Shown here one piece after another: positions 720 to 15,464 of a stretch of DNA of 64,000 nt. How positions within the stretch are numbered: the stretch's first letter is position 1; each line of letters starts with the position of its first letter. The stretch lies in NCBI GenBank assembly GCA_965215265.1, contig OZ244048.1:2944001-3008000 (forward strand), written 5' to 3'. Under the pieces are notes generated by a model. It ran no database searches. It was not told where the DNA came from and saw only the letters and a program-made list of their open reading frames with translations. Both the position numbers and the translations under genes were made by a program. Source of the stretch: Candidatus Poribacteria bacterium (GTDB taxonomy: Bacteria; Poribacteria; WGA-4E; WGA-3G).

Positions 720-884
720 GACACCGGAGAATCGCTTAAGCGGCTCACTGCGCATAAGTATAATGTCTATACCGTTGTGTTCAGCCCCGATGGTCGCACA
801 CTCGCTACTGGGAGTTCGGACAACACCATTCGACTCTGGGATGTCAACACAGGTAAACCCCTCAAAACTCTCATGTCTCTCTAA
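720..884 (+). pseudogene. orphan single WD40 repeat fragment
   Basis: DTGESLKRLTAHKYNVYTVVFSPDGRTLATGSSDNTIRLWDVNTGKPLKTL, no start codon; homologous to the repeats in 2259-3473. Confidence 0.8.
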
Positions 885-2002
885 GTGTGCAAGGCTTGTA
901 GGAACGCTTCAAAACAGGGTGTCTCAACGGCGATGAGATGCAGCTGCTTGAGCCGCGCCAGGTCTGGTATCGCTTCAAGCCGCGGTTGAGTCGTCTGCAC
1001 GTCGCTCTGCGGGAACCGTGCGGTGAGCACCGCGATGACGTTTTCTATCGCATTCCGGCGTGCACCTTGTTCAATGCCTTGTTCAATGCCTTGTTCAATG
1101 CCTTGTTCAATGCCTTGTTTGAGTCCTTGTTGCACGAGGACTTCTGCCATGGTTTCTGCCATCTGTTTTACCTCCATCTTATCTTCTGCGAGTTGTTCCA
1201 CTAATGCTACTAAGCCACTTTGTTCTGATAGCGGCCGACGATGCAAGATGAGCAGCAAGAAATAGACTATCGCCTCACGCCGCTGTTCGGCACCAACCGT
1301 ATCAAACTCATCAAGGTGCGCTATCGCCGTGCGTAACGCACCCCGTATCTCCGCCTCGTCTGCTCTCTCTTTTTGCAGCACCGTCAAAAGCCACCCGAAC
1401 GGATGATGCGTTTGAGTCAGCGTGGCGACATCGGTTTGCTTCACGCTCAGAAACAGCGTCTCAAAAGTCGGAACGAACCGGGCGAGTTCAGCCGGGATGT
1501 CCATCAGTGCCTCAAGTGTCAGCGGGGTTTTCCATTGCTGCTCGCCGGTATAAAACACTATCGGCAGTATCGGGGGCAACCGCCGCGCCGGTTTGGGCAT
1601 CTTGTCGTGTTCCCATTGCCTGCGATGTGCGTCCCAAATCAGCATCATATAAAACAGCACCCGAAACCCCATCGTCGCATCCACCGTCGATTGATGTTCC
1701 ACGAGCAGATAGATGAGCAGCGCCTCCGTGGCTGTCTCGGTTCTAAAGGGGACGCGGAACACGCTATCCGCCTCTTGCTCCCGCAGCACTTCCGGCAGCA
1801 GGCTTCTCGGGAGTGGAACAAGTTGGCTAAAATCTATGCGTTCTGCGATGTCAGCGGCGACGATTTCTAGCACGCCTCGGACGTTTTCGCCGTTTTGTAG
1901 CAAGCGCCGCACACTTCTGTCGGCGAAGTGTTCAACGCGTCCATCAAGGAGCGCACGGATGTGCTGCATCTGCGTGTCCACGTCTTTGGTTTCTTGCGTC
2001 AT
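881..2002 (-). CDS. Rpn/YhgA-like recombination-promoting nuclease (PD-(D/E)XK)
   Basis: EAD..F, YLLVEHQS, LPPILPIVFYTG motifs; C-terminal QGIE repeats. Confidence 0.9.
   Translation of the reverse strand: MTQETKDVDTQMQHIRALLDGRVEHFADRSVRRLLQNGENVRGVLEIVAADIAERIDFSQLVPLPRSLLPEVLREQEADSVFRVPFRTETATEALLIYLLVEHQSTVDATMGFRVLFYMMLIWDAHRRQWEHDKMPKPARRLPPILPIVFYTGEQQWKTPLTLEALMDIPAELARFVPTFETLFLSVKQTDVATLTQTHHPFGWLLTVLQKERADEAEIRGALRTAIAHLDEFDTVGAEQRREAIVYFLLLILHRRPLSEQSGLVALVEQLAEDKMEVKQMAETMAEVLVQQGLKQGIEQGIEQGIEQGIEQGARRNAIENVIAVLTARFPQSDVQTTQPRLEAIPDLARLKQLHLIAVETPCFEAFLQALHT
1074..1120. repeat. 12-bp tandem repeat (CCTTGTTCAATG, ~4x) encoding QGIE units in Rpn
   Basis: Seen directly in sequence. 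Confidence 0.9.
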
Positions 2003-2042
2003 TTCTCTCCTCTATGCCGGCGGACTGTCGTTTGGGCAGCCC

Positions 2043-2112
2043 GCCGGTAAAAAGCGGTGAAGACTTAACTCAAATTATACCACTTTTGGCAGTAAAGATG
2101 CCACCCTTTTTT
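2043..2112. repeat. ~70-bp direct repeat, copy 2; probable promoter of rpn
   Basis: Near-identical to 625-693. Confidence 0.9.
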
Positions 2113-2258
2113 TTAGGTTGTGTTCAGCCAAACCTCTAAAAAAAAGAGTGACTTTTTTTACAATCTGTGGTATACTTCTTTATGAGCCAAGTGGAAAACT
2201 GGAAAAAACAAGCAGCGTGCACCCATGCAGGCAAACAAAAATGACTGGAGGAAGTCAA

Positions 2259-3473
2259 ATGAAAAAGAGGTTAACGGTATTCGGTTTATTAACTCTTCTG
2301 GTAACGAGCGTTTTTCTCCCAGTTGCGTCGGGTCAGTTTCTGGCAGAGACGCAGTGGGGTTTACCCGATGGGGCGATTGCGCGCCTCGGCAGAGGCTCGG
2401 TAGGTGAGGTAGCATATTCGCCGGATGGTTCTCAGCTTGCAGTGGTAAGTAGCATCGGTATTTGGCTGTATGATGCGGAGACGGGTGAGCCGCTCGACCT
2501 ACTCACGGGGCATACGTCTTTTATCTTGAGCATAGCGTTCAGTCCAGATGGTAGCACGCTCGCTAGTGGGAGTATGCGAACCATTCGGCTCTGGGATGTG
2601 AACACGGGCGATACACTCAAAACTCTCACGGGGCATACGGCGCCTGTCTTGAGCGTAGCGTTCAGCGGAGATGGCAGAACACTCGCAACTGGGAGTAGGG
2701 ACAGAACCATTCGTCTGTGGGATGTGAACACAGGCGAGACTCTCAAAACTCTCACCGGGCATACGGATTGGGTCAGGAGCATAGCGTTCAGTCCAGATGG
2801 TAGCACCCTCGCTAGTGGGAGTTGGGACGGCGCCGTGCTGCTCTGGGACCTCCGTCCTCCTACTGCCCCTGCTGCAGCGGAGGACATCAACGCGGATGGG
2901 CTTGTCAACATTCAAGACCTCGTTTTAGTCGCCGCAGCGTTTGGGGAGACAGGCGAGAGCCGTGCAGATGTCAACGGCGATGAACTCGTCAATATCCTGG
3001 ATCTCACGCTCGTGGCGGCGGCATTCGGGAAAGCACCGGCAGCAGGACAGCAGGGCCAGGCGCTGATGCGAGCAGAAGTGCAGCAATGGCTCACTGAAGC
3101 ACGGCAGCTGAATCTCACAGACGCGGGTGTCCAGCGTGGGCTTGTGGTCCTCGAGCAGCTCCTCGCCGCACTCACACCGCAAGAGAACGCCCTTTTGCCA
3201 AACTACCCCAACCCGTTCAACCCCGAGACGTGGATGCCGTATCAATTGGAAAAACCGGCAGCCGTGTCGGTGCATATCTATTCCGCACACGGCATGCTCG
3301 TTCGGACACTGTCGCTTGGGCATCAGCAGGCGGGGTTTTACCGGACTCGGGCGCGTGCCGCGTATTGGGATGGCAGAAACGCCGTCGGGGAGCCGGTGGC
3401 GAGCGGTGTCTACTTCTACACGCTCACCGCTGGGGACTTCGCCGCTACACGCAAAATGTTGATTCGCAAGTAA
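2259..3473 (+). CDS. secreted WD40-repeat protein with dockerin-like (EF-hand) module and C-terminal FlgD-Ig/T9SS-type-A-like domain
   Basis: GGAGG RBS then MKKRL signal peptide; GH...WD repeats; DINADGLVNIQDLV and DVNGDELVNILDL; LLPNYPNPFNPETW...ASGVYFY...TRKMLIRK. Confidence 0.9.
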   Translation: MKKRLTVFGLLTLLVTSVFLPVASGQFLAETQWGLPDGAIARLGRGSVGEVAYSPDGSQLAVVSSIGIWLYDAETGEPLDLLTGHTSFILSIAFSPDGSTLASGSMRTIRLWDVNTGDTLKTLTGHTAPVLSVAFSGDGRTLATGSRDRTIRLWDVNTGETLKTLTGHTDWVRSIAFSPDGSTLASGSWDGAVLLWDLRPPTAPAAAEDINADGLVNIQDLVLVAAAFGETGESRADVNGDELVNILDLTLVAAAFGKAPAAGQQGQALMRAEVQQWLTEARQLNLTDAGVQRGLVVLEQLLAALTPQENALLPNYPNPFNPETWMPYQLEKPAAVSVHIYSAHGMLVRTLSLGHQQAGFYRTRARAAYWDGRNAVGEPVASGVYFYTLTAGDFAATRKMLIRK

Positions 3474-4009: not shown

Positions 4010-4150
4010 CCGTCAACGTCTATGATTTTGGAAGTGCGTGTGTAAATTTCGTCAGAGACTTCTTAGGTATAGTATAACCTAATGTTTTCTAATCGTATGG
4101 AATTTTGTTGCCCTACTCGTTTTGGGCGATGCTAAGGGCTTTTACATCAA
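4010..4150 (+). repeat. PR1 repeat copy (degenerate, long form)
   Basis: CGTCAACGTCTATG...GTGTGTAAATTTCGTCAGAGAC.TCTTAGG...GGGCGATGCTAAGGGCTTTTACATC resembles the reverse complement of the 154-bp unit. Confidence 0.6.
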
Positions 4151-5079
4151 TTCGGTGTGTTGAAGATGGCGCGGTTGACTCGCATGATTATTTTTCTCCA
4201 GGGTTGTTTCGGCTGTTGATTTTTATCGGTTTCCGACATCTCCAGGGTTGTGGTTTGTGGAAACCAGATCTCGGGTTCAAACTGTTCAAGTTGGTATGTA
4301 TACCGGGTTAATGACCTTCGTTCTTCCGTGTGCCTTTCTTGATGAAGACCGCGTGTCATTAAGATGCTCTGCATTTCTTTCCGATATACCAATATGCGCG
4401 TCGGAAGAAAACTCTTGCATGGATCTCGGTACATTTCAATAGTCCGGGTATTGTCTGAATCGGTGCGGCACAATGTGAGGGCATAGACGGTTTGCTCTTT
4501 TTCGTTGATCTTTTCAACTGTAATGGGTGTAAAGATACGAAAATTCGTGTAGAGGTTTATCCAGTGCATCGGATTGAAAAGGTCATCTAATCGATGCGAA
4601 GGCATTGTCGGTTGCTCTTTCCACTCGGTGCCGATTTTCTCCCAGACATGCACTGTTTTCCCTGTTCTCAGATAGTGGTGATGGGTTTCTTTCCAGTTTG
4701 AAAGCGGAGGCCCGTAGAGTTCCATCTTATAACGGGCTTTCACGTCGTAAAATTGGTGTTCTGCGTCAAATTGATAGGTAATCTCCCACCGCCCTTTTTC
4801 TTCATAAGTGTCTTTACGTCGGGCTGCAGTCGGTATCCGCCTGGGTCCACTGAGGATGAGCGTGAAGTCAATCACGCCGCTTTTGAGTTTTGCCTTGTAA
4901 ATTTGAATACCCACTTTTACCGCTTCGAGCAATTGCGTTGCTTCTGCGGAGAGTTCAACGTTTTCAGGTGTTTTCGGTGTCTGTGGCACTGCAGGTGTGT
5001 CAAACAATAAAGACAGACAGAAGCAGGAAACGGAAAAGAAAAGTGAGAAACGACATTCCAAAATCTGTGTAATCCGCAT
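4147..5079 (-). CDS. secreted hypothetical protein, possible LolA-like beta fold; paralog of 5091-6251
   Basis: N-terminal hydrophobic signal; DPCKSFLPTR and PEIWFPQ match NPQKSYRPER and PDLWFPQ of the neighbour. Confidence 0.7.
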   Translation of the reverse strand: MRITQILECRFSLFFSVSCFCLSLLFDTPAVPQTPKTPENVELSAEATQLLEAVKVGIQIYKAKLKSGVIDFTLILSGPRRIPTAARRKDTYEEKGRWEITYQFDAEHQFYDVKARYKMELYGPPLSNWKETHHHYLRTGKTVHVWEKIGTEWKEQPTMPSHRLDDLFNPMHWINLYTNFRIFTPITVEKINEKEQTVYALTLCRTDSDNTRTIEMYRDPCKSFLPTRILVYRKEMQSILMTRGLHQERHTEERRSLTRYTYQLEQFEPEIWFPQTTTLEMSETDKNQQPKQPWRKIIMRVNRAIFNTPN

Positions 5080-5090
5080 CGGATGTCCTC

Positions 5091-6251
5091 CTACTCAACT
5101 TTAAAGGATTCATGGGTTCGCGTGTCAAAAATAGTAGCCCCGGAGGGTGGTTCTAGGGCAAAACGGCGAGCCGAAATCGGTTCGTTAATCCGCACGTTTG
5201 TAAGGTGCATCGTAGTTGTCTCCAGAGAGGTTTCAGCACCGGTTTCAAGATTCACAAGCGATGTCACGGATTGGGCGGATTGTGGGAACCAGAGGTCAGG
5301 GGCGACTTCCACGAAATCAAAGTCTTTTATCACTTGGTGCCGCTGTTCGGGGCCTTCAGTAGAAAACATAAAGCGTTCAGGACGGTAACTTTTCTGTGGG
5401 TTAAGCCAGAGTTCAACTTCTACGGCTTCTTGCACAGTCCCTTTGATGTGATAAACGGAGGCGTTGTCCCAATTGACAGACTGTATCTGTTCGACATTGA
5501 TAGCATCGATAAGTTCTGCAAAGGGACTACCATCGCTGAGGTTCCATCCCCAGAAACGTGGGTCGTATGCTGTGTTATACCTGATGTCGCTGCCGCGTGT
5601 TAAGACTGTGCCGTTCGGCGTTTCGCGAAGTTCTTCAAAAGTCTCGCCATCATAAGCGAAGTGTTTTGTGTCAAAAACGTGTAGACTTCCGTGCTGCTCA
5701 TTATACTCAGTCGCGTTTTGTGTCACGCTGCCGGTGACTCGGTTTCCAGAAAACGCAAAGGTTCCTTCCCAAGTGCCCTTGGGGGCCTGTAACATGCTGT
5801 CTTCTAGAATAGGGTGACTTGATATCTCCATGAAAAAGTCTACGCTCCCGCTTTCGACGAGGCTATCGTAATAGGAGACACCTTCGCGGACGAGTTGAAA
5901 CATTTCGCCTTGCGTGAGTTCAGTGGAACTGTCTGCGGTTTCATCCTCGGTGAGAATACTGTTTCCCGAGAGGTTTTGTTCTTCCAATGTTGAGAGGAAG
6001 TCGATTGCTTCTGTCACAACGGCAAAATCTGGTGTCGTGTTCTCTATTTGTGTTGTTTCTTCAGCTGTAGTGGCGAGTTCCGTCACGGCTGGCACATCAG
6101 ATAAATGGGCAGATGCAGTCGTTTTTATCACTGTAACAGTTGAGTGAACATCCCGATAAGTTGTATACCAATAGATGATTAAGGCACTCATAAGAACAAT
6201 TGCAATGATTGCTAGTGCCCATGCTTTGGTGTGTCGCGTTTTTTCTCTCAT
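5091..6251 (-). CDS. membrane-anchored hypothetical protein, possible LolA-like beta fold
   Basis: N-terminal TM helix; AYDGE, DPRFWG, WFPQ, VRINEPI...F..P.GATIFD; AAGGA RBS at the ATG 6251 start. Confidence 0.75.
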   Translation of the reverse strand: MREKTRHTKAWALAIIAIVLMSALIIYWYTTYRDVHSTVTVIKTTASAHLSDVPAVTELATTAEETTQIENTTPDFAVVTEAIDFLSTLEEQNLSGNSILTEDETADSSTELTQGEMFQLVREGVSYYDSLVESGSVDFFMEISSHPILEDSMLQAPKGTWEGTFAFSGNRVTGSVTQNATEYNEQHGSLHVFDTKHFAYDGETFEELRETPNGTVLTRGSDIRYNTAYDPRFWGWNLSDGSPFAELIDAINVEQIQSVNWDNASVYHIKGTVQEAVEVELWLNPQKSYRPERFMFSTEGPEQRHQVIKDFDFVEVAPDLWFPQSAQSVTSLVNLETGAETSLETTTMHLTNVRINEPISARRFALEPPSGATIFDTRTHESFKVE

Positions 6252-6390
6252 GGTGAGGTGATCCTTTTGTTTGGGGTGACGCGTATTAAAACGCGTCACC
6301 GTTGGTTTTTCCGGGCGTTCCGGAAAGAATCATGAGGCAACCTGCCCCTCGTCGTTTATGAGTATAGCGAGGCCGTTGTCTTCATGACGA

Positions 6391-6822
6391 CTAACATGAG
6401 CTCTGCGTCTCTATCGTATAAACCCCATTTGTCCATATTCTAGTGATATATGAAGTTCGGAACCACGATATACAGTAGGGACCCACATAATCATACTGCT
6501 CTGCACATTGTTGGTTGTTTTCAGTAGTTGTAATGCAATCTGTGGATGAACTGTTTGTTCCACAAACAGCGTGGCCCCCACCCGATCGTTTGGAAGAGAT
6601 CCATCCGGAGCCGCTCCAAGACGTTTCGCAGTCTGAGGAGGCACAGACACCAGATGTGGGATAAACCTGCGCGTAGGTTTCGCACGGCCCCGCTCCCCGT
6701 GTTGCAAGCATTTCTGCTTGACTGAGGGTTTGGAAGGGAGCGTCGGGGTGAAAATTCACCTCCAATAGAGTGAGTCCTGCAATGAGCATGAGGAAGAGTA
6801 TCGGAAAAACTGTTGATTTCAT
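6391..6822 (-). CDS. Cys-rich precursor with signal peptide and double-glycine-type leader
   Basis: ACAGGAG RBS; hydrophobic N-terminus; LSQAEMLATRGA motif; 8 Cys in a Ser/Thr/Gly-rich core ending in Cys. Confidence 0.75.
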   Translation of the reverse strand: MKSTVFPILFLMLIAGLTLLEVNFHPDAPFQTLSQAEMLATRGAGPCETYAQVYPTSGVCASSDCETSWSGSGWISSKRSGGGHAVCGTNSSSTDCITTTENNQQCAEQYDYVGPYCISWFRTSYITRIWTNGVYTIETQSSC

Positions 6823-6907
6823 TCTGAAATTCTCCTGTAAGTCTGCCGAGCCGTCCGGCCTCGGCGGTTTGTGTCGTATTCCCACACGCTGTTGTGTGGG
6901 AATCTTT

Positions 6908-8344
6908 CTATTTTGTAACTAAAGCAAAGACTTGTATTTTGATAATATGCATTTTCGGATGATTTGTGTGTATCCTAACCTCACCTTTTAGAATGCCAGT
7001 CGGTAGCAGCGGTGGCAACGTCAAACGCAGCTCGTAGCGATTTTCGTCTGTGAATGCGTCCACCTGAACTGTGCCGACATCGGTTTCTACCTTCTCAATC
7101 TGGATGTCGGTGTCGCTGTAGTTGTGAAGCACCACCACTTTTGTATTTCCTTCAGTGGCTTTGATGCGTCCGAAAAAAAAGCGTTTGGGAGTCAGTGTGT
7201 ATCGCGGGTTCACTTTCCCAGAAATCGGTAAGGTGATGCTCTTTGTTTTCCCATCGCTTTCTTCGTAGTGGACGGTGAGCGTTTCATCAACTCTTTTATC
7301 TCTCGGCATCTGCTCTGTTTCAAAATAGAGTTCAATGTTGGCGTGCCGCCAGGGCGAAATGACAGCGTCACTTCGAAGAACAGGTTGTATCCAGGCTTGT
7401 GAGGGCTCGATTTTGAGGATTTTCGCAGCAGTCTCATTCAGGTTTTGGATCGCTACGGTTCTTTTGATCTGAGATGTGCTGGTACCTTGAATAGAGAGGG
7501 TTTCAGGGATGCAGACGAGGGAAAACTCACGGATGAGACCAAGAGAAATAAAAGTATGTGGGCGTTTCGGGGCCTCTGTTTCAAGATGAATAGTGGTAAA
7601 GAGCGAACGGTTAGCGGCATTCGCATCCCATGTTACATCTAAAAAGGTGGAGCCCCTTGCGCGGATGACGGCACTCTGTTTTTTGGTAATGGTGCAGTTG
7701 CAATTCGCGGCAATGTTCAGGATTTTTAGTGGGGTAATACTGACATTTCGGAGCTGTACAGGTATACCGTATTCGCCAGTTTTTCCCTTTCCAAAGTCAA
7801 ACAACGTAGGGGATGCGACTAAAGCCGGCTGCCAATAAGACTGCTGTTTTTGTGAAAGGACAAGGATTTTGCCCGTCCAAAGTTCCAAAAAGCGATCGCA
7901 TGAGATAACGGTGGCGGCGTCACGTAAAGTATTCCGAGGTGTGTCAAACATTCGAACCCACTTGTCAGTTGCATGTTCAACCACAATGAAGTGCCCAACC
8001 GTGCCATCAGCTGCAGATGGATTTTCATCCGCAAACGTAGTCTTGAGATGTGCGATGACGGGTGTGTTCAACATTTGTAGCTCGGCGTAGGTGAGTTTGG
8101 CACCTTGGAGTTCAAGACCTATCGCGTTGCCACAGTCGATCAATTCCACAAAACTCGCGATGCGACCGCCTTCCTGTTTCGCTTTTACGGCAGTGTTGGC
8201 TGTGTCCAGCGATACCTCAAGACCTAAGAGCGTAGCAAGGTGATAGAGACTCGCGGCACCGCAAGCGTGTTTGGCATCGGTTTGCGCGTAGGCGACCGGA
8301 AGTATCAACAATATGATGAGAAGTAGGGTGGCTAAAAATTTCAT
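6908..8344 (-). CDS. secreted C39-family cysteine peptidase with DUF1573/Ig-like domains
   Basis: Signal peptide ending AYA; ACG, GHFIVV, MFD triad pattern; LRN....LKI.NI.ANCNCT DUF1573-like motif. Confidence 0.85.
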   Translation of the reverse strand: MKFLATLLLIILLILPVAYAQTDAKHACGAASLYHLATLLGLEVSLDTANTAVKAKQEGGRIASFVELIDCGNAIGLELQGAKLTYAELQMLNTPVIAHLKTTFADENPSAADGTVGHFIVVEHATDKWVRMFDTPRNTLRDAATVISCDRFLELWTGKILVLSQKQQSYWQPALVASPTLFDFGKGKTGEYGIPVQLRNVSITPLKILNIAANCNCTITKKQSAVIRARGSTFLDVTWDANAANRSLFTTIHLETEAPKRPHTFISLGLIREFSLVCIPETLSIQGTSTSQIKRTVAIQNLNETAAKILKIEPSQAWIQPVLRSDAVISPWRHANIELYFETEQMPRDKRVDETLTVHYEESDGKTKSITLPISGKVNPRYTLTPKRFFFGRIKATEGNTKVVVLHNYSDTDIQIEKVETDVGTVQVDAFTDENRYELRLTLPPLLPTGILKGEVRIHTNHPKMHIIKIQVFALVTK

Positions 8345-8371
8345 GATTGTTTCTCCAAGCCTAGAGATGAT

Positions 8372-8968
8372 TTATAAATCGTGCTTAATATCGGTTTCCG
8401 GTTTTCCAAGGTTTCCAGCCCCAAAGGGCGAGCGAAGCCTGAGATATTGTTGTTTACCTTCTTTATTGGTGTAAGTGATCTGGTGCACTTGAATCTGCGT
8501 GAGTGTCAGCTCTTCTAAAAAGCGGTCACCGTTCTTGACAATGAGCCTGCGATATTTCGGGTGGTTGCTCTGTAAAATCGCGGTGTTCTTCTCGGTATCA
8601 GCGTATATCACTGTCCCAATGAGTTCGAGTTTGAGTGTCCATTCGTATTTGCGATATCCGAGCGGACGGAACAGATTATTGTCTATAATCACCTGACAGT
8701 GGGGCGGCAGTTTCACAAAAGAACGCTGGGGCATCTGTCGCTGGATGTGCAGTTTGGGTGCACGTTTGCCTTGCATTTGATAGAGGTGCTGTCGCAACTG
8801 CTCTCGGAGTGCGGAATCCGTCTGGAGATCCGCGAGAGTCGCCCCTTCTTTTTTGAGTAACGTTTGTATTAATGCAGGCGGTGTATCCTCATTATTACCA
8901 AAGGGAGTAGGCACTATAAGGAGCGATAAGATTCCTAAAAAACTGAAAAGTCTAATGCTTCGTTTCAT
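8372..8968 (-). CDS. GspC/type II secretion protein C-like periplasmic-domain protein
   Basis: N-terminal TM; IIDNNLFRPLG..LELIGTVI..TAIL..VKNGD..I....ITY pattern. Confidence 0.6.
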   Translation of the reverse strand: MKRSIRLFSFLGILSLLIVPTPFGNNEDTPPALIQTLLKKEGATLADLQTDSALREQLRQHLYQMQGKRAPKLHIQRQMPQRSFVKLPPHCQVIIDNNLFRPLGYRKYEWTLKLELIGTVIYADTEKNTAILQSNHPKYRRLIVKNGDRFLEELTLTQIQVHQITYTNKEGKQQYLRLRSPFGAGNLGKPETDIKHDL

Positions 8969-10127
8969 GAGTCTTCTCTATCGTATGCACGATCTTCAGA
9001 AAATAGACATCTCCGTCAAAATGCGGGCTATTTTCTGCGGTGTGGCATGTCAGGCAATTCATCTGTGGCACCTGCCCATACCCACCCAGGCTTGGGTTCT
9101 TCACGTGATTGCCACCGACACCATGACAGGTTTCGCAGCCGACATCCATAAGCATCGGTGTCTGCAACTCGCTGAGAAACCCCGTCTGAAACCCAAACCC
9201 AACGGTATGACACGGCAAACACTCCGGGTCTTTTTCCCGTCCCTTTTCAACAAGTGTGTGATACGCATGTGCATGCTTTGTTTTTTTCCAACTGACGTAT
9301 TCCGAGGCGTGACACGTTTGACAACTTGCGTTCCCAGCATACATTCCCCCGGTTGAAAGCGGTTCTTGTTCCACATCTACTACCAGATTTTCAGCGGAGA
9401 GCATCTGTTGATACAACGCGAGCAGCTCCATCATCCGAGGCGAGTCAGGGATGCGCTCTGAAAGTGTCTGTAACTGAAAACGAGAATCTCCCTGGTTTCC
9501 ATTGTTATCCCAATAAAGGTCAAGCCGTCCCAAGGCTTTTCCCTTCGTGCCGGGGTTGAGTAACAAGGTATTCCCAATAGAGATGGGTTCCATCAGTGCT
9601 TCTGAGTGTTCATCTCCAATGAGTATCACGTCAATTTTCGGAAAAGCTGTTGCCAATGCCTTCGCTTCGTTGACAGGCGCGTGCGCCAGCAAGACGATGA
9701 AATCACATTCCGCAGAAAGTTGGAGAATGAGTTCTCTCAGCACGTCCACTGGGGGTTTCAACGTTAAATCCGCACCTGTGTTTTCAGCATAGACATCAAA
9801 TCGTTGGGAGGTAACCCCGACAATGCCCACCTTTCCTTGACGTTTATTCAGCACCACGTTATGAATCACATAAGGATGAAAAACACGCACGTCGCCTTCA
9901 AACAGATTCGCGGACAGAAAAGGAATATCAGAGGTTTCTGAGAAATACTTTAACGTCTCTATTCCTAAAAGTAAGTCACGCGGTCCAACATTAAAGGCAA
10001 CATATTCCATCTCTTTGAGTGCCGTAAATCCGATTTCTGCTTTCATCTCATTCGCCCTTTCTTGATATGAACCAAAAAGGATTGTTAGGGCTTCAGGCAC
10101 AGGTTGACTCGACTCGCAATGCCTCAA
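8952..10127 (-). CDS. truncated 5'-nucleotidase-like domain fused to tetraheme cytochrome c (c554-like)
   Basis: PFLSAN, VGIVGV, VLLAH, IDVIL.G; four CxxCH motifs (CQTCH, CLPCH, CETCH, CLTCH); start uncertain. Confidence 0.8.
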   Translation of the reverse strand: MRHCESSQPVPEALTILFGSYQERANEMKAEIGFTALKEMEYVAFNVGPRDLLLGIETLKYFSETSDIPFLSANLFEGDVRVFHPYVIHNVVLNKRQGKVGIVGVTSQRFDVYAENTGADLTLKPPVDVLRELILQLSAECDFIVLLAHAPVNEAKALATAFPKIDVILIGDEHSEALMEPISIGNTLLLNPGTKGKALGRLDLYWDNNGNQGDSRFQLQTLSERIPDSPRMMELLALYQQMLSAENLVVDVEQEPLSTGGMYAGNASCQTCHASEYVSWKKTKHAHAYHTLVEKGREKDPECLPCHTVGFGFQTGFLSELQTPMLMDVGCETCHGVGGNHVKNPSLGGYGQVPQMNCLTCHTAENSPHFDGDVYFLKIVHTIEKTHETKH

Positions 10128-11379
10128 TGGGTGACATCCGCATCGCTTTTATAGCAGGATACAGCCCGAACCCGATACCGAGTAACACTGAAAAGCAAAC
10201 TGAAATCAGCACCCATTGAGGCGAGAGAACTGCCGGCCATTGAGGGACGATTTTCACAATCTGCACGGCGAGATGGGCCATTCCTGCCCCGGCGAAGATG
10301 CCGAGGCCAATGCCGAATAACCCACCGATACCACACAGGATCACCGATTCACTCAAAAACTGCAACAGAATATCCGAATGTTTCGCACCGAGTGCCTTTC
10401 GCAATCCGATTTCGCGCGTGCGTTCTCCGACAGCCACCAACATCATGTTCATAATGCCGATACCCCCGACGAGGAGGGAAAACCCGGCGATGCTGCCCAA
10501 TCCGATTTTAAGAATCGTGCTGATTTTCGACAGTCGTTTTACCCCGCCTCGCACGTCAAAATGACCGAAGAACGTTTCGTTTCGGTGTCGTTTTTGGACG
10601 ACGGCGTAGACCTCTTCAATGGCCCTGGGCATGTCGGCTACGGTGTGTGCTTGCACCGCAATCTGCGGAATCCGATCGTTGCCAATGAAACGTTGTTGCA
10701 CCGTGGTCATCGGGAGAAAGGCCAGATCATCGAAACTAAAACCGAATTTCAAGCTGCGTCCGCGCGGCATGAGCGTTCCGATAACCGTGAACCGTTCGCT
10801 TTGATGTGCGTATTGCCCGCTGCCACGAAAAATTTTAATCTCTTTTCCAAGTGGCGATGCTGCGCCGAACAGTTCGGTAGCGACATTTGCACCGAGCACG
10901 ACGACTTTCGTGGCGTTTTCAACGTCTTCATCCGAAATAAAACGTCCGGTTTGCAAGTCCCATTCCATCGCTGCAGTGTAGGCAGCATCCACGCCGTTAT
11001 AGCCGGCACGGATGTTCGAGCCATCTGGGGCTCGCATCAGTACGCGCGTCCATTGCGGTATCCGCGGGCTAACCACTTTCACGGACGGGCAGTCTGCCGC
11101 AATCGCCAATACATCGCCATAGTTAAAATGTTCCCGGCTCCGGAACGGGACACGGCGGCCGTTCTCCCGTTTGGCATTGAGACGTAAAAGGGTAAAGGTG
11201 TTCATCCCGCCGATTTTTTCAAGATCCTGGATAATAATCTGTTTCGCACCATCGCCGATAGCAATCATCGCCTGTACCGCCGCGATGCCGATGAGAATGC
11301 CTAGCATCGTGAGCAACGAGCGAAGTTTGTGCTGAAGCAGCGAGCGGATTCCGATGGCAATGCCTTCCGATAGGCGCAT
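10093..11379 (-). CDS. MacB-like ABC transporter permease
   Basis: RSLLTMLGILIGI, VGGIGIMNMMLVAV.ERTREIGLRKALGA, GLYPA..A..MSPIEALR. Confidence 0.93.
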   Translation of the reverse strand: MRLSEGIAIGIRSLLQHKLRSLLTMLGILIGIAAVQAMIAIGDGAKQIIIQDLEKIGGMNTFTLLRLNAKRENGRRVPFRSREHFNYGDVLAIAADCPSVKVVSPRIPQWTRVLMRAPDGSNIRAGYNGVDAAYTAAMEWDLQTGRFISDEDVENATKVVVLGANVATELFGAASPLGKEIKIFRGSGQYAHQSERFTVIGTLMPRGRSLKFGFSFDDLAFLPMTTVQQRFIGNDRIPQIAVQAHTVADMPRAIEEVYAVVQKRHRNETFFGHFDVRGGVKRLSKISTILKIGLGSIAGFSLLVGGIGIMNMMLVAVGERTREIGLRKALGAKHSDILLQFLSESVILCGIGGLFGIGLGIFAGAGMAHLAVQIVKIVPQWPAVLSPQWVLISVCFSVLLGIGFGLYPAIKAMRMSPIEALRVESTCA

Positions 11380-13128
11380 TTATGCCTCCTGCTCCTGTCT
11401 GGGCTGCAGTCCGGCGAACTGTTTCTGAAATAGGTTATGGTAGACACCGCTACGTTGAATGAGTTCGGCGTGTGTGCCGGTTTCAACGAGTCTGCCATCA
11501 CTGAGTACAAGGATTTTATCGGCGTTCAAGATGGTGGAGAGCCGATGTGCGATGACGAAGCTGGTACGCCCTTTCATCAGCCGCGTGAGGGCTTCTTGCA
11601 CGAGTGCCTCAGAGTCGGCATCGAGAGACGAGGTTGCCTCATCGAGAATGAGGATTTTCGGATTTCTGAGGATCACCCGTGCAAGCGCAACCCGCTGCTG
11701 CTCGCCGCCAGATAACCGAACCCCTCGCTCACCTACCTTGCTTTCGTACTGGTCGGGGAAATTCATAATGAAGTCGTGCGCGTTTGCCAACTTTGCGGCG
11801 GAGACAACTTCTTCATGGGAGACAGATTCCGGATCTTCTGCACCAAGGCGAATGTTATAGGCGATGCTCTCGGCAAACAGATACGGGGCTTGGAAAACAA
11901 TGCCGATATGGGCTCGCAACGATTGAATTTGTATTTTATGGATAGGGAGGGTATCGATAAAGATGCTGCCCTGTTGCGGTTCGTAGAAGCGTGGAATGAG
12001 TTTCATTAATGTGCTTTTCCCCGCACCGCTCGGGCCAACTATCGCCAATGTGTTGCCGGGGGCCGCTTCAAAACTAACATCCTTCAAAACAGGTAGGGCT
12101 TCGCTATATCCGAAAGAGACATTCGAGAATTGGACACGCCCCACAATCTGTTGAATGGGTACCCCTTCTTGAGCTTCTTCCTCGTGTTCATCGAAAAATG
12201 CGAAAATTCTCCGCGCCGCAACCAGAATGGATGGAATTCTCAGATGAAGGCTAACCAGCCCCTCGAGGGGACGATACACGCAACTAAACCACATGGTTGT
12301 CGCAAAGAGTTCGCCCACAGTAATAGTCCCACTTAGGACATACCTTCCACCGAATAAAAATACTAAAGCTGTGGCTGTCCAGACCAGGACAATAGTGATG
12401 CTCCCTGCCTGCCGGATTGTTTGCTGTTTGACATGGATGGATACAAGCTGTTTGAGTGCCTGCCGGAGGTTCACCAAATCGTAGAGCTCTTTTCCGAGTC
12501 CTTTAAGTTCGCAAGATCCGGCAATGCTTTCCTGCAAGCTGCCGGATAGCGAAGCCGTTTGTTCTTGAACGGCCGCTCCCATTCGCCGGAGCGGCTTGTC
12601 TAAAAATATGGGGATCAGCACATTCACCATGACAAGAAGTAAGGAGAAGACACATAACTGCCAACTAACGAACGTAATAACGATGAGTGTCACACCCAGC
12701 ATGATAGTGTTTACGAGATAGTCGCCGGCAAATACGCGGAACCCCTGGACCGCTTTTGGCGTATCCGAGGTGAATATCGCCATGACTTGCCCAGTTTGGT
12801 GTGTGTCGTAAAATCGAAACCCTAATTTGCGCAGATGGTGGTAGGCTTCGAGTTGGATATCTTTGGACCCATTTTCGGAGATCTTTGTCGGAAAGTGAGC
12901 AAGTCCTAGCGCGAATAAGTACATAACTACTGATGTCAAGATATAGAGTCCACATGCAGGCAGCAGCAGGGCAACATTTTTAGCAATAAATACATCGTCA
13001 ATTAACAGTTTCTTAATCCAGGGCAGAATCAGAAAGCCGCCGGAGTAGCCGAGGGAGGAAATGATAAAGAGCAATTGAAGATGCCAATACGGTCTCAGAT
13101 ATGACAAAAGTCGCAGAACGTCTTTCAT
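11380..13128 (-). CDS. ABC exporter, fused TMD-NBD (MsbA-like), no N-terminal peptidase domain
   Basis: GPSGAGKST, LSGGEQQR, ILILDEATSSLD, IAHRLST. Confidence 0.93.
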   Translation of the reverse strand: MKDVLRLLSYLRPYWHLQLLFIISSLGYSGGFLILPWIKKLLIDDVFIAKNVALLLPACGLYILTSVVMYLFALGLAHFPTKISENGSKDIQLEAYHHLRKLGFRFYDTHQTGQVMAIFTSDTPKAVQGFRVFAGDYLVNTIMLGVTLIVITFVSWQLCVFSLLLVMVNVLIPIFLDKPLRRMGAAVQEQTASLSGSLQESIAGSCELKGLGKELYDLVNLRQALKQLVSIHVKQQTIRQAGSITIVLVWTATALVFLFGGRYVLSGTITVGELFATTMWFSCVYRPLEGLVSLHLRIPSILVAARRIFAFFDEHEEEAQEGVPIQQIVGRVQFSNVSFGYSEALPVLKDVSFEAAPGNTLAIVGPSGAGKSTLMKLIPRFYEPQQGSIFIDTLPIHKIQIQSLRAHIGIVFQAPYLFAESIAYNIRLGAEDPESVSHEEVVSAAKLANAHDFIMNFPDQYESKVGERGVRLSGGEQQRVALARVILRNPKILILDEATSSLDADSEALVQEALTRLMKGRTSFVIAHRLSTILNADKILVLSDGRLVETGTHAELIQRSGVYHNLFQKQFAGLQPRQEQEA

Positions 13129-13298
13129 ATTATGTCCCTTTTAGTCCAGAATAGGCCTTAGAGAACTGGGGGAAACATGTGCGCAACCAAATTTCAACAG
13201 CTAAAGGGGAATCTATGTAAACATAGGGTTGAAAAACTGAAGAAACCAAAGTTTACCTAAAGATACCTTATGCTGTTTTAACCCGTAACGTTTGAAAA

Positions 13299-13709
13299 CT
13301 ATCTCTTGGTATTCTGTGTTGTTAAACCAAGGCGTGTTTGGATCGTAGTAAGAAAAAACATCTTTTGCTCAAGGATTCGGTGCATCCGTTTTGCCAATGT
13401 GGTGGATTTCGCGGTGATGCGTTTCATGCCTTCTTCATACCCATGCGTGTCAATTATCTCCCGTGCCCACATTTCTAGTGCTTTGCGTTTCTGTCTAACC
13501 CGTTCTAGCGAGGTTTTGCAGCAGCCACATCCTTTTTCCTCCAGCGGTGAGTTTTTGGTGGATTGGACGTGCTCTATTCTTGTTGCTGCAGGGTCTTTCT
13601 GTACGTGACGACGATCGGCAGGCAATGTTGATGTCTGTCCTTGGACCCAGTAAAAGGTGATTCCTGTGACAACACTGACAATACAGACAATATATAAGAT
13701 GGACTTCAT
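13299..13709 (-). CDS. membrane-anchored hypothetical protein with CGCC motif
   Basis: N-terminal TM helix; KGCGCCK. Confidence 0.65.
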   Translation of the reverse strand: MKSILYIVCIVSVVTGITFYWVQGQTSTLPADRRHVQKDPAATRIEHVQSTKNSPLEEKGCGCCKTSLERVRQKRKALEMWAREIIDTHGYEEGMKRITAKSTTLAKRMHRILEQKMFFLTTIQTRLGLTTQNTKR

Positions 13710-13712
13710 GAT

Positions 13713-14453
13713 TTATTCTCCTACGTGAAAACGAAGGTTGAATTGGTGTTCAATATCATCTCCGGATTCAAGTAGCAATTGTTTAGATTCCTTTAGGTAT
13801 TCGAGATGGTCGGCAATAACTTGGACGGCTTCTGGAGGACTAATTTTTGACACAAGTCTTATCATTGCCTCTGTATGGTAAATCGCATCGTCAATTGTAA
13901 GGGTGCCTTCATTGTTGCGTCTGACGGTTTCAACGATGATATTAACATCCGGGTCATCGCCATACTGTTCACGGAAAGCCGCGTCAAGCCGTTGGTAGGC
14001 ATATTCGGGCTCGGTTGCGAGATAGGCATTGTAATCGTCAAATCCTGCTTTCACCACTTCATAGTCATAAGGGACCGCCTCGGGAGCTTCACCGATGTCC
14101 CCGGCGGCGATAGCGTCTGTTGCGGCTTCTTCAAGGAGAGTGTCCAAGTCACTGTCAAGATTGGTATCGTCAGGATAAACATCGATATCGTCAGGATAAA
14201 CATCGACCACAGCTTCTGTGAGTTCTACCTCGACATGTGCTGAGTTTTCTACAGAGGTATCTGTGGCAGAGGTGACTTTTTGTCCTTGTTGTGCTGGTTC
14301 TGCCGGGGCCGTCTCACGTGTTTCTGTCTGTGGGGATGGTGCTTTGGGCAGTGCCGCTTCGAAACGTCTGATGTCCCACTGGAGGTAAAACCACAACCCT
14401 GTACAGATGATGATAACAGTAAGTAGTATAGTCATAACGGTTCGCATTTTCAT
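13713..14453 (-). CDS. membrane-anchored acidic hypothetical protein
   Basis: N-terminal TM; internal DVYPDD duplication. Confidence 0.7.
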   Translation of the reverse strand: MKMRTVMTILLTVIIICTGLWFYLQWDIRRFEAALPKAPSPQTETRETAPAEPAQQGQKVTSATDTSVENSAHVEVELTEAVVDVYPDDIDVYPDDTNLDSDLDTLLEEAATDAIAAGDIGEAPEAVPYDYEVVKAGFDDYNAYLATEPEYAYQRLDAAFREQYGDDPDVNIIVETVRRNNEGTLTIDDAIYHTEAMIRLVSKISPPEAVQVIADHLEYLKESKQLLLESGDDIEHQFNLRFHVGE

Positions 14454-14532
14454 AAGTTTCTAATCCTTTAAATCTATAGATTTGAAAATCCGCCGCCGGG
14501 GGTGAGGTCTGGCGCGGTATCTATCAGGGGTT

Positions 14533-15464
14533 TTATTCTTTCTTTTTCGGTAACAACCCCTGAATCTCAAAGCTGAATTTGATTGTATCCGTCTCAAGCG
14601 AGCCTTGTTTTTCAAGCAATTTGCTGATGTTCCGAAGTCTTTTTAAACCCTTTTCGAGGTTTTGAAGCTGATCTTTATGCTTTTCTGGATCTCCATGATT
14701 GAGGATCTGAGTTTGTAATTCCATCAGGGCGATAAGCTCGGGATAGGAGACACGTTTTTTAGCTGAGAAGGCTAGCACGGTGTCAACCAATTCTTCGATG
14801 CGCGGATGATTGTTAAACTCGGCTGCCATGAGTGGGAGGAGTTTTGCGCGGGCTGCTGCTGGATCGGTCTCGAAAAGTGTTTTTAAATCGGATTCAGAGT
14901 TCTGAGCGTGCGATTCATCGGTGCTTGCTTTGCGATCTTCTCCTCGGGAAGAATCGCCCGTCTTTGGCTCAGACGTGTGGTTAGGTTCGTGGCCATGGCT
15001 GTGGTTTTGGTATGATTTTTCCATGGCACCATACTTTTGATATGCTTCTTGGAGACGCTGCATCTCGAAAGGATACTTCTGAGCGTCTCCTGTTTCCATC
15101 ATTCGGGGGGTAAGCATCCGGATTTCCAATTCCGCCAGGCGTTTTACATCCGAGGGGTGTTGCGTGCCTTCGCTGCAAATTCGGAAGTAGAGCGGGACCC
15201 ATTCGTCTACGAGGGGGTGTTCTCCGAATAGTTTTTTCGCGACGTTTTGGAGTTCCGTGCGTGCAGCCTTTTGGTTCGTCTTGAGTCGTTCCTTAAACGT
15301 TGCAAGCGAATCTGCCCAAAGTGCATCGCTAATTGCTTCCAGGGGGGGGCGTGAGAATGAGGCGAAGATACTTTTTCTTTTGCATCCGCTATATAACAAA
15401 AGGGCAGAAAAAATAAATTGTAAAATAGGATCCATCCCAAGAGTCGAAAATTCAAAAATATCAT
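14533..15464 (-). pseudogene. secreted hypothetical protein frameshifted at a C8 tract (15342-15349)
   Basis: AAGGA RBS, ATG 15464 and signal peptide (..CYIADA) are in one frame and the body is in another; C9 would fuse them. Confidence 0.6.

Follow-up and report, generated by a model that had tools for sequence, protein, structure and literature searches.

A predicted exported C39 peptidase and an adjacent leader-bearing candidate substrate in a five-gene unit of Candidatus Poribacteria

A stretch of 64,000 nucleotides from a single-contig genome (4.83 Mb) of Candidatus Poribacteria, here called the window, was analysed around eleven minus-strand open reading frames (ORFs) at 4147-15435, which were numbered g01-g11 in the direction of transcription. 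Within this cluster, the conserved unit consists of the five genes g07-g08-g09-g10-g11 (window 4147-8968). It combines g08, a stand-alone peptidase of family C39 with a predicted Sec signal peptide, with g09, a Cys-rich protein whose leader resembles that of double-glycine substrates. So far the unit is known from Poribacteria only; this rests on word-based searches, and organisms outside the phylum were not searched directly. We propose that g08 cuts g09 after Gly43-Ala44 and thereby frees the domain of g09 from the membrane, a model that we judge to be evenly balanced between right and wrong. A first-pass annotation, made from the DNA sequence of the stretch, had put forward the same core idea, an extracytoplasmic C39 peptidase with a Sec-dependent substrate of the double-glycine type, and the domain, leader and linkage evidence presented here argues for it. 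The annotation was largely right in its observations and right at the core of its interpretation, but wrong on the extent of the system, as the transporters and the cytochrome that it included lie outside the working unit here. The features of the unit are as follows.

8372-8968, minus strand: g07, 198 residues, no Pfam or NCBIfam match, N-terminal hydrophobic segment
6908-8344, minus strand: g08, 478 residues, Peptidase_C39 and DUF1573 domains (Pfam)
8285-8344, minus strand: putative signal peptide of g08, residues 1-20 (...PVAYA, then Q), by hydropathy
7844-8287, minus strand: C39 domain of g08, residues 20-167, with Cys28, His118 and Asp134
7694-7702, minus strand: CxC motif of g08, Cys215-Asn-Cys217, in the first DUF1573 domain
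6391-6822, minus strand: g09, 143 residues with 8 Cys, no Pfam or NCBIfam match
6757-6813, minus strand: predicted signal-anchor helix of g09, residues 4-22, by hydropathy
6688-6735, minus strand: leader of g09, FQTLSQAEMLATRGAG, residues 30-45, proposed cut after Gly43-Ala44
6394-6687, minus strand: putative mature domain of g09, residues 46-143, beta-rich, 7 invariant Cys
5091-6299, minus strand: g10, 402 residues, no Pfam or NCBIfam match, predicted to be anchored, LolA-fold
4147-5079, minus strand: g11, 310 residues, no Pfam or NCBIfam match, predicted secreted LolA-like paralog

For g08, the Pfam matches to Peptidase_C39 (PF03412, residues 20-167, 47.3 bits against a cut-off of 22, E 2.4e-12) and DUF1573 (PF07610, 43.8 bits against 26.1, E 2.7e-11) are both above their cut-offs, in agreement with the annotation's signal-peptide C39-DUF1573 peptidase. 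The N-terminus, MKFLATLLLIILLILPVAYA followed by QTDAKHACGAASL, reads as a Sec signal peptide cut before Q. Its hydrophobic core covers residues 3-21 with a hydropathy of 2.39, and the small-x-small site ends at residue 20. The hydrophobic N-terminus with AYA then Q is retained across a 44-row alignment of the g08 family (A4). When g08 is aligned to the peptidase domain of PCAT1 (7n87), Cys28, His118 and Asp134 fall on the catalytic positions; the Cys was found in 41, the His in 41 and the Asp in 39 of the 44 rows. As far as its sequence tells, g08 is apparently an exported and active C39 peptidase. Both Cys residues of the CxC motif are retained in all 41 rows that have the first DUF1573 domain, and the (seleno)protein family OS_HP2 of NCBIfam matches g08 at 1.4e-9, under its cut-off. 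The motif probably has a redox function.

In ABC (ATP-binding cassette) transporters that contain a peptidase (PCATs) the C39 domain is fused N-terminally to the ABC exporter, on the cytoplasmic side. No ABC domain is present in g08, and of the three C39 matches found in the genome none belongs to an ABC transporter fusion. Without a transporter fusion the module is therefore not a PCAT. In total 47 homologs of g08 were found, and all those with a source name belong to Candidatus Poribacteria. Another non-transporter setting for C39 exists in the same genome outside the window (L003:1090-3165), where the N-terminus of a 691-residue protein is hydrophobic, its C39/C39_2 domain retains the Cys, and an FGE-sulfatase domain forms the C-terminal part.

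The ORF of g09 stays open up to a GTG at 6885. Since its homologs begin with MK..TV, the ATG at 6822 is the likely start. The protein consists of a hydrophobic core of 19 residues, a variable stretch, the leader and the Cys-rich domain; the core is followed by FQTLSQAEMLATRGA with G next. Over the anchor the hydropathy is 2.24, and the first small-x-small site occurs only at residue 34. Behind the anchor and its variable stretch lies the helix LSxxEMLATRGAG. A cut after Gly43-Ala44 would place L at -12, S at -11, E at -8, M at -7, T at -4, G at -2 and A at -1. The double-glycine consensus has hydrophobic residues at -12, -7 and -4, an acidic residue at -8, Gly at -2 and a small residue at -1; the g09 leader agrees with this spacing. 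Hence, the Cys-rich precursor with a GA leader described by the annotation was recovered, with a hydrophobic N-terminus in front of the leader. This position behind a hydrophobic helix sets g09 apart from double-glycine leaders, which have a free N-terminus.

The family alignment of g09 holds 19 members, five of them from a distant version of the system described below. Seven Cys columns are invariant, and Gly16, Leu33, Glu37 and Met38 are nearly so; position 43 is Gly in 17 of the 19. Apart from the Cys residues the leader helix is the best-conserved part of the family, and the domain keeps only its seven Cys. AlphaFold2, run with this alignment, gave a model with a mean predicted local distance difference test (pLDDT) of 82. 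It begins with a helix spanning residues 5-24, followed by a linker of low confidence, a second, short helix at 35-41 and a beta domain from residue 47 (pLDDT 87-95 over residues 51-140). The domain matched no solved fold: in the PDB, Foldseek found nothing at E<=0.001 (best fetuin-B, E 0.36), and the top Z from VIA-align over 48,161 chains was 4.5. Very few relatives exist: out of 5.77 billion, only 9 proteins reached E<=0.01. The combined pattern of anchor and leader singles out g09 among 28,241 frames of the 4.83-Mb genome, and in 384 kb of related loci it matched members of the g09 family only.

The annotation had expected variable cores behind conserved leaders. The leader is indeed conserved, while the core proved to be a conserved folded domain with seven invariant Cys. 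A ribosomally synthesized and post-translationally modified peptide (RiPP) precursor was rejected for g09, given a conserved domain of about 95 residues with a pLDDT of about 90, and Pfam and NCBIfam scans of the cluster recognised no RiPP-modifying enzyme, as the annotation had noted. With this core and no modifying enzyme the system is not a RiPP system; g09 is a small protein and not a RiPP-like peptide. A pilin-like identity (N-terminal helix plus beta domain; a GspI row at Z 3.9) was rejected too, because there is no Gly before the helix and no Glu at position 5 of the hydrophobic stretch. A lipoprotein reading was dropped for g09 and also for g01, as neither has a lipobox. A terminator-like hairpin on the minus strand at 6334-6348, 43 bases past the g09 stop and ahead of g10, could lift the g09 transcript relative to the downstream genes; yet the promoter and terminator scan of the region gave counts at shuffle level (11 against 13.9 and 17 against 13.2, the latter for terminator-like sites).

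The linkage of g08 and g09 was examined in 176 genomes of the phylum, of which 75 have some C39-DUF1573 match, and 20 loci of 10-19 kb were compared with the proteins of the window. Strong g09 matches (profile search, E<=1e-24) occur in nine genomes, and in eight of these the C39 gene is directly adjacent, so the co-occurrence of precursors with homologous peptidases that the annotation had predicted is observed. Two versions of the system can be distinguished. The first, version A, comprises the window and five related loci (L037-L040, L052) with C39 proteins 54-70% identical. Its gene order is UshA-like cytochrome, g07, C39, g09, g10, g11, a PMT_2-type GT-C glycosyltransferase and a GT4 transferase. 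The second version was found in three genomes (G148, G164, G055), with a C39 only about 25% identical. Here the order is UshA-like cytochrome, LVIVD-like lipoprotein, anchored Cys-rich protein, acidic single-helix protein, LolA-like protein, C39-DUF1573, STT3-like GT-C transferase, GT2 transferase and an extracytoplasmic function (ECF) sigma factor. The anchored Cys-rich protein carries the leader LSDxEMxxLxG[AT]x, and the C39-DUF1573 protein has CSC at the CxC position. Judged from these gene orders, the same parts recur at great divergence.

The presence of g09 also follows the state of the catalytic Cys. Among orthologs with this residue, g09 is adjacent in six of eight, whereas it is adjacent in none of the 21 orthologs in which Cys is changed to Ser and the following Gly to Asp. 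One genome (G130, HASGA) holds the sole ortholog with the Cys-to-Ser change only; its adjacent g09 is without the 18-residue stretch that holds LSxxEML.

According to the cleavage model, g09 would enter the inner membrane via Sec as a signal-anchored pre-protein, with no signal-peptidase site after the helix, and its disulfide-rich beta domain of about 95 residues would fold in the periplasm. The exported g08 would then bind the amphipathic leader helix (L33-S-x-x-E37-M38...) between anchor and domain and act as a private signal peptidase, cutting after Gly43-Ala44. The CxC of the first DUF1573 domain would probably supply thiol-disulfide chemistry. The two LolA-fold proteins, g10 (anchored) and g11 (soluble), and g07 would act in the same pathway, perhaps by covering the hydrophobic anchor or by bringing the product to the outside. 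The annotation had proposed a structure prediction of the peptidase-leader complex, which was carried out with C39 residues 21-172 (43 rows), g09 residues 21-62 (11 rows) and three controls. The complex scored 0.38 (runs 0.38, 0.32 and 0.40) against 0.01 for the best control, with a partner pLDDT of at least 47 and a contact agreement of at least 58%. Of 80 solved complexes 58 attain the pass mark of this procedure, and 2 of 110 mismatched pairs also do; at scores of 0.60 or under only 7 of the 80 solved complexes attained it, and likewise both mismatches. The predicted complex goes in the expected direction.

Several observations weigh against the cleavage model. The verdict of the complex prediction was 'weak support'. 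All signal-peptide and topology calls come from a hydropathy script and not from a trained predictor. Canonical C39 domains have a Gln a few residues before the catalytic Cys, which forms part of the oxyanion hole. In the corresponding column g08 has Q21, seven residues ahead of Cys28; only 3 of the 44 rows have Gln there, and 34 relatives have Ala. Across the g09 family the residue at -1 (position 44) is A, L, T or E, with G-L-G in G073 and G108, and since -1 is not always small the family departs from the canonical GG/GA/GS rule. Curated leader and bacteriocin precursor families of Pfam and NCBIfam gave no match to g09 at E<=0.01. The linkage has exceptions as well. In G108 a good g09 is accompanied by PD40 proteins, g10 and a g11-like gene, with no C39 gene within 20 kb, and in G163 a degenerate g09 of the distant type stands alone. 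Conversely, G156 and G077 keep the catalytic Cys, and neither genome has a convincing g09. Two metagenome proteins, P0016 with the Cys kept and P0056, a leaderless g09, both derive from contigs of 39,293 bases; should the two share a single contig, losing the leader and losing the Cys would not be strictly coupled. Finally, a strain variant in two runs is without 747 bases covering the start of g07, so g07 may be dispensable.

Beside two of these loci further genes were noted. PD40/TolB-like propeller proteins follow the C39 gene in G077 (L041) and g09 in G108 (L086). In L041 the last immunoglobulin (Ig)-like domain of g08 is matched by three separate stretches (56-63% identity over about 65 residues), and ORFs of 413 and 427 residues contain two of these.

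The partner genes bear on the question of what g08 cuts. For g10, hydropathy indicates one hydrophobic helix at residues 26-44 followed by an acidic linker. Residues 110-402 were modelled by AlphaFold2 with a pLDDT of 93.2, and Foldseek placed this model with LolA, LolB, LprG, DUF1329 and MucB (best E 4.8e-8, probability 1.00, template modelling scores 0.37-0.63). According to the model, the C-terminal domain of g10 has the open beta-barrel fold of LolA. In sequence searches neither g10 nor g11 reached a cut-off of the LolA superfamily profiles (PF17131, PF09865 and TIGR00547; TIGR00547 matched at E 0.0064 and 16 bits). Within the g10 family, Pfam LolA_like was found in 4 and DUF2092 in 4 of 46 members. 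The family comprises 57 cluster representatives at E<=0.001 among 1.84 billion. By phmmer g11 is linked to the g10 family, and its N-terminus is signal-like in hydropathy; a protein atlas based on a language model gave, as a lead only, clusters of MucB/RseB N-terminal and lipoprotein-sorting proteins at 0.94. The annotation's two paralogous beta-rich secreted proteins are thus related proteins with a LolA-type fold.

In 15 ortholog loci (L037-L040, L042-L052) g10 lies downstream of the C39 gene, L041 being the exception among those examined, whereas g09 follows it in five. This observation fits a different explanation, in which g08 is exported and active but cuts another target, for example g10 or, as has been proposed for FapD, a secretion component. 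In that case g09 would simply be secreted under shared regulation, and its conserved helix would serve some other purpose. The two genomes with a catalytic Cys and no g09, the L, T or E at the putative -1 position of several g09 members and the weak complex score can be read in the same way, and for the periplasmic C39 peptidase FapD the target is likewise described as unclear, in the part of the published account concerned (PMC5557850). Against this, g09 tracks the catalytic Cys, the pairing of C39 and g09 repeats in the second version despite the low identity of its C39, and no other part of g09 besides the Cys residues is conserved as well as the leader helix. The linkers of g10 have a conserved A(I/L)(D/N)FLExL helix and no conserved Gly pair. 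Moreover, protease-dead orthologs retain g10-like partners, hence g10 needs no cleavage. We regard a target other than g09 as unlikely.

By gene order, g07 would be a tightly coupled upstream partner of the peptidase: all five clade-A loci that keep it (L037-L040, L052) have an ortholog (45-63% identity) immediately upstream of the C39 gene. The protein begins with a hydrophobic segment and contains a conserved IIDNNLFRPLGY motif. The label GspC-like that it had been given finds support neither in Pfam nor in profile searches against the PDB, which returned only chance rows at E<=10; the language-model atlas gave leads only (GspN-family 0.90, T2SSC 0.87, PilP 0.85). In the contigs of the two runs mentioned above (X6 and X8, which stem from two studies), 8690 is followed immediately by 9438; the missing 8691-9437 holds the haem-binding end of g06 and the first about 93 codons of g07. 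The gap marks a strain variant whose copy of this region has eroded further.

The orthologs that have lost the protease activity by sequence (Cys28 to Ser and Gly29 to Asp) comprise L042:10001-11461, L044, L048 and 18 further loci within L015-L036. Most of them contain one in-frame TGA aligned to the first Cys of the CxC motif (...NT-U-H[ST]...); L050 has Gly at this position. A TGA in this place suggests a redox site with selenocysteine. In addition, about 30 Poribacteria proteins of about 470 residues fuse a C39-like domain to a LolA-fold domain similar to g11 (P0045-P0047, P0057-P0084 and L056:5065-6483). Cys and His are lost in the three fusions checked (P0045-47), and the C39-like domain of L056 is also dead. 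In the genome studied here, outside the window at L002:1414-2820, a LolA-like ORF of 245 residues is followed by an ORF of 201 residues in which a LolA-like tail runs into C39; this pair is possibly a split fusion.

Another protein was observed beside the dead peptidases. In L042 (6602-9616) and nine other clade-B loci, a protein of 1004 residues with ECF sigma regions 2 and 4 and BNR/sortilin-type propeller repeats is encoded directly upstream of the protease-dead C39-DUF1573 gene, and one to three LamG plus LolA-like proteins are encoded downstream.

If the g08 family were chiefly a periplasmic binding or redox scaffold, the C39 domain would bind a leader or peptide as in exporters of repeats-in-toxin (RTX) proteins, the Ig-like domain with CxC or selenocysteine would provide thiol-disulfide chemistry for Cys-rich clients, and proteolysis would come second or not occur at all. 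The 21 orthologs that are intact apart from the catalytic Cys, most of them with the in-frame TGA, agree with this, as do the fusion proteins in which a C39-like domain without Cys and His is joined to a LolA-like one, and the occurrence elsewhere in the system of a UshA-like tetrahaem protein with a PCGC motif, of which one paralog is fused to a DsbA-like domain. It is countered by g08 itself and its 40 closest relatives, in which the retained Cys, His and Asp argue for selection on catalysis, and by the fact that g09 is missing precisely at the protease-dead loci. A mere scaffold is decidedly unlikely in our view, and cleavage of g09 by g08 is preferred.

Beyond cleavage, the observations can be joined into a broader pathway. 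Taken together, the swap of the CxC for TGA, the UshA-like protein with PCGC and haem and the paralog fused to DsbA suggest a linked thiol-disulfide chemistry. The LolA-fold partners, also in their fusions with dead C39-like domains, suggest a module for recognising a bipartite signal, hydrophobic helix plus leader helix. Poribacteria might possess a dedicated extracytoplasmic maturation pathway, in which small Cys-rich proteins are parked in the inner membrane by their anchor until the leader is recognised by an exported C39 peptidase that acts as a private signal peptidase. In its full form, the clients would also be oxidised by the CxC or selenocysteine Ig domain and the UshA-like multihaem protein, LolA-fold carriers would bind the hydrophobic anchor, linked transferases of the PMT or STT3 type would possibly glycosylate, and dead C39-LolA fusions would serve as chaperones reading anchor plus leader. 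This extended scheme is put forward tentatively; we consider it doubtful as a whole.

The remaining genes of the cluster and two features downstream of it are listed below.

14533-15435, minus strand: g01, 300 residues, no Pfam or NCBIfam match
13713-14453, minus strand: g02, 246 residues, no Pfam or NCBIfam match, one N-terminal helix
13299-13709, minus strand: g03, 136 residues, no Pfam or NCBIfam match, one N-terminal helix
11380-13128, minus strand: g04, 582 residues, ABC_membrane and ABC_tran, MsbA-like half-transporter, peptidase domain absent
10093-11379, minus strand: g05, 428 residues, MacB_PCD and FtsX, MacB-type permease
8952-10127, minus strand: g06, 391 residues, UshA-like NF041198 and Cytochrome_C554, 5'-truncated
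2118-3473, plus strand: WD40-repeat protein
881-2002, minus strand: YhgA-like transposase

All eleven ORFs lie on the minus strand, as had been described, and their spacing is tight: g04 and g05 adjoin with a gap of 0 bp, and g05/g06 and g06/g07 overlap. This arrangement had led to the view that all eleven genes belong to a single system for maturation and export, the product being moved by the ABC exporter and the MacB permease and the cytochrome acting as redox partner. Besides co-direction and close spacing, the closest genome (G156) speaks for it, since g01, g02 and the ABC ortholog are also found there within 9 kb of the C39 gene, and MacB-type pumps are known to expel periplasmic peptides. 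The comparison of loci gave a different result: ABC exporter, MacB permease and g01-g03 are missing from L038, L039, L040 and L052, four of the five related clade-A loci. Orthologs of g01 and g02 were found only in L037. The ortholog of g04 (69% identity) is likewise near the module only there, on the opposite strand. From this distribution the ABC exporter, the permease and g01-g03 appear as neighbours by rearrangement and not as conserved partners, and the eleven-gene system is highly improbable.

The properties of the single genes point in the same direction. The peptidase-less ABC exporter abutting a MacB permease was correctly recognised. The best NCBIfam match of g04 is MsbA-like and under the cut-off; g05 matches MacB_PCD and FtsX of Pfam with 144.6 and 70.9 bits. 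There is no nucleotide-binding domain in g05, and the nearest ATPase belongs to g04, a complete half-transporter. Pfam detected no HlyD-type or other membrane-fusion partner and no outer-membrane partner in the cluster. Paralogs of MacB with more than 60% identity occur in 175 of the 176 genomes irrespective of the presence of the module, about 10 per genome and with 10 matches in this one; the permease family is strongly expanded in the phylum. None of the 11 nearest relatives of g05 has another gene of the cluster within 1.5 kb. Of the three supposed membrane or secreted hypotheticals, g02 and g03 have one N-terminal helix each, while g01 shows no clear hydrophobic segment.

The description of g06 as a nucleotidase-like tetrahaem cytochrome holds for its families, NF041198 (260.9 bits against a cut-off of 275) and Cytochrome_C554, and for the four CxxCH motifs. 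It had overlooked that the NF041198 match begins at profile position 86 and that about 75 N-terminal residues of the orthologs (458-470 residues) are gone, signal peptide and PCGC motif included. Upstream of g06 only stops were found in frame, and an N-terminal extension by selenocysteine read-through was rejected in view of several stops and no upstream homology. Compared with its orthologs, g06 is a 5'-truncated remnant of a gene whose full-length form belongs to the system elsewhere. Because the signal peptide is lost, it cannot become a c-type cytochrome as it stands, and the proposed role as redox partner does not apply here. Runs from two studies have contigs that span the g05/g06 junction, so it did not arise as an assembly error in a single data set. 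At L052:192-2051 a second UshA-like tetrahaem paralog, of 619 residues and with a C-terminal DsbA-like thioredoxin domain, was observed, and a frame of the same UshA-DsbA-like kind (615 residues) lies in this genome near C1:3145362-3146462. The DsbA-like domain on this paralog supports a thiol-redox role for the UshA-like family.

The other flank of the unit is rearranged too. The window copy is without the PMT_2 and GT4 transferases of its relatives and has the YhgA-like transposase and the WD40 gene instead; elsewhere in this genome only fragments of a PMT_2 partner were found. Over 881-3473 the contig depth is several-fold higher with many joints, which marks a repeat-rich rearrangement zone. 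At the opposite end, run X6 has zero cover at 13609-15309 and no contig joining across.

In the literature, a search for C39 together with DUF1573 found no paper, one for Poribacteria together with C39 nothing relevant, and one for 'periplasmic C39' and variants the FapD paper only. Among known systems, the PCATs (ComA, LahT, PCAT1) share with g08 the peptidase family and the Cys/His/Asp triad, and their substrates share with the g09 leader the spacing of L, S, E, hydrophobic residue and G. In contrast to the PCATs, g08 is predicted to be exported and has no transporter attached, and the ABC exporter next to it is not conserved as a partner. In contrast to their substrates, the leader of g09 would lie behind a membrane anchor instead of forming a free cytoplasmic N-terminus, its -1 residue varies beyond G/A/S, and what follows as cargo is a folded domain with a length of about 95 residues and seven invariant Cys.

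LapG is a periplasmic Cys protease that cuts the retention module of LapA at a di-alanine site. The cleavage model resembles this pair in that a periplasmic Cys protease would free a protein from a retention element at a pair of small residues. However, LapG does not belong to C39, and LapA is a giant adhesin held in an outer-membrane pore, whereas g09 is small and predicted to be anchored in the inner membrane. With LolA, LolB, LprG and RseB (MucB), the C-terminal domain of g10 shares the open beta-barrel fold of its model. Unlike the LolA superfamily, g10 and g11 show no membership at the sequence level, and their small family is linked, in some proteins even fused, to C39.

C39 peptidases are the textbook cytoplasmic gatekeepers of bacteriocin and quorum-peptide export, and the annotation had described them as normally cytoplasmic. 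This holds with a published exception, FapD of the Pseudomonas fap amyloid operon, a Sec-exported stand-alone C39 peptidase that is active in the periplasm and whose Cys-to-Ala mutant abolishes secretion of FapC (PMC5557850). In the relevant passages of that paper the target of FapD is stated to be unclear and the Fap proteins are said to have no canonical C39 sequences (PMC5557850). As far as the published description of FapD goes, g08 resembles it as a stand-alone C39 peptidase with a Sec signal peptide and a predicted extracytoplasmic location, and the candidate client would also be routed via Sec. In contrast, none of the ten neighbours of g08 has a Fap or amyloid family match, LolA-like and Cys-rich proteins being found instead. 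Furthermore, g08 has three extra Ig-like domains with CxC and adjoins a protein whose leader is near the classical double-glycine consensus. Thus, a periplasmic stand-alone C39 peptidase is already known with FapD; new here is the first one with an obvious leader-bearing candidate substrate. Owing to this single adjacent candidate and the predicted cut site, specificity and purpose of a periplasmic C39 peptidase become testable with two recombinant proteins. If confirmed, the system would represent a new route for membrane release by a leader-specific private signal peptidase, and would tie C39 to LolA-fold carriers and to redox Ig domains with selenocysteine or CxC in an uncultured phylum of sponge symbionts.

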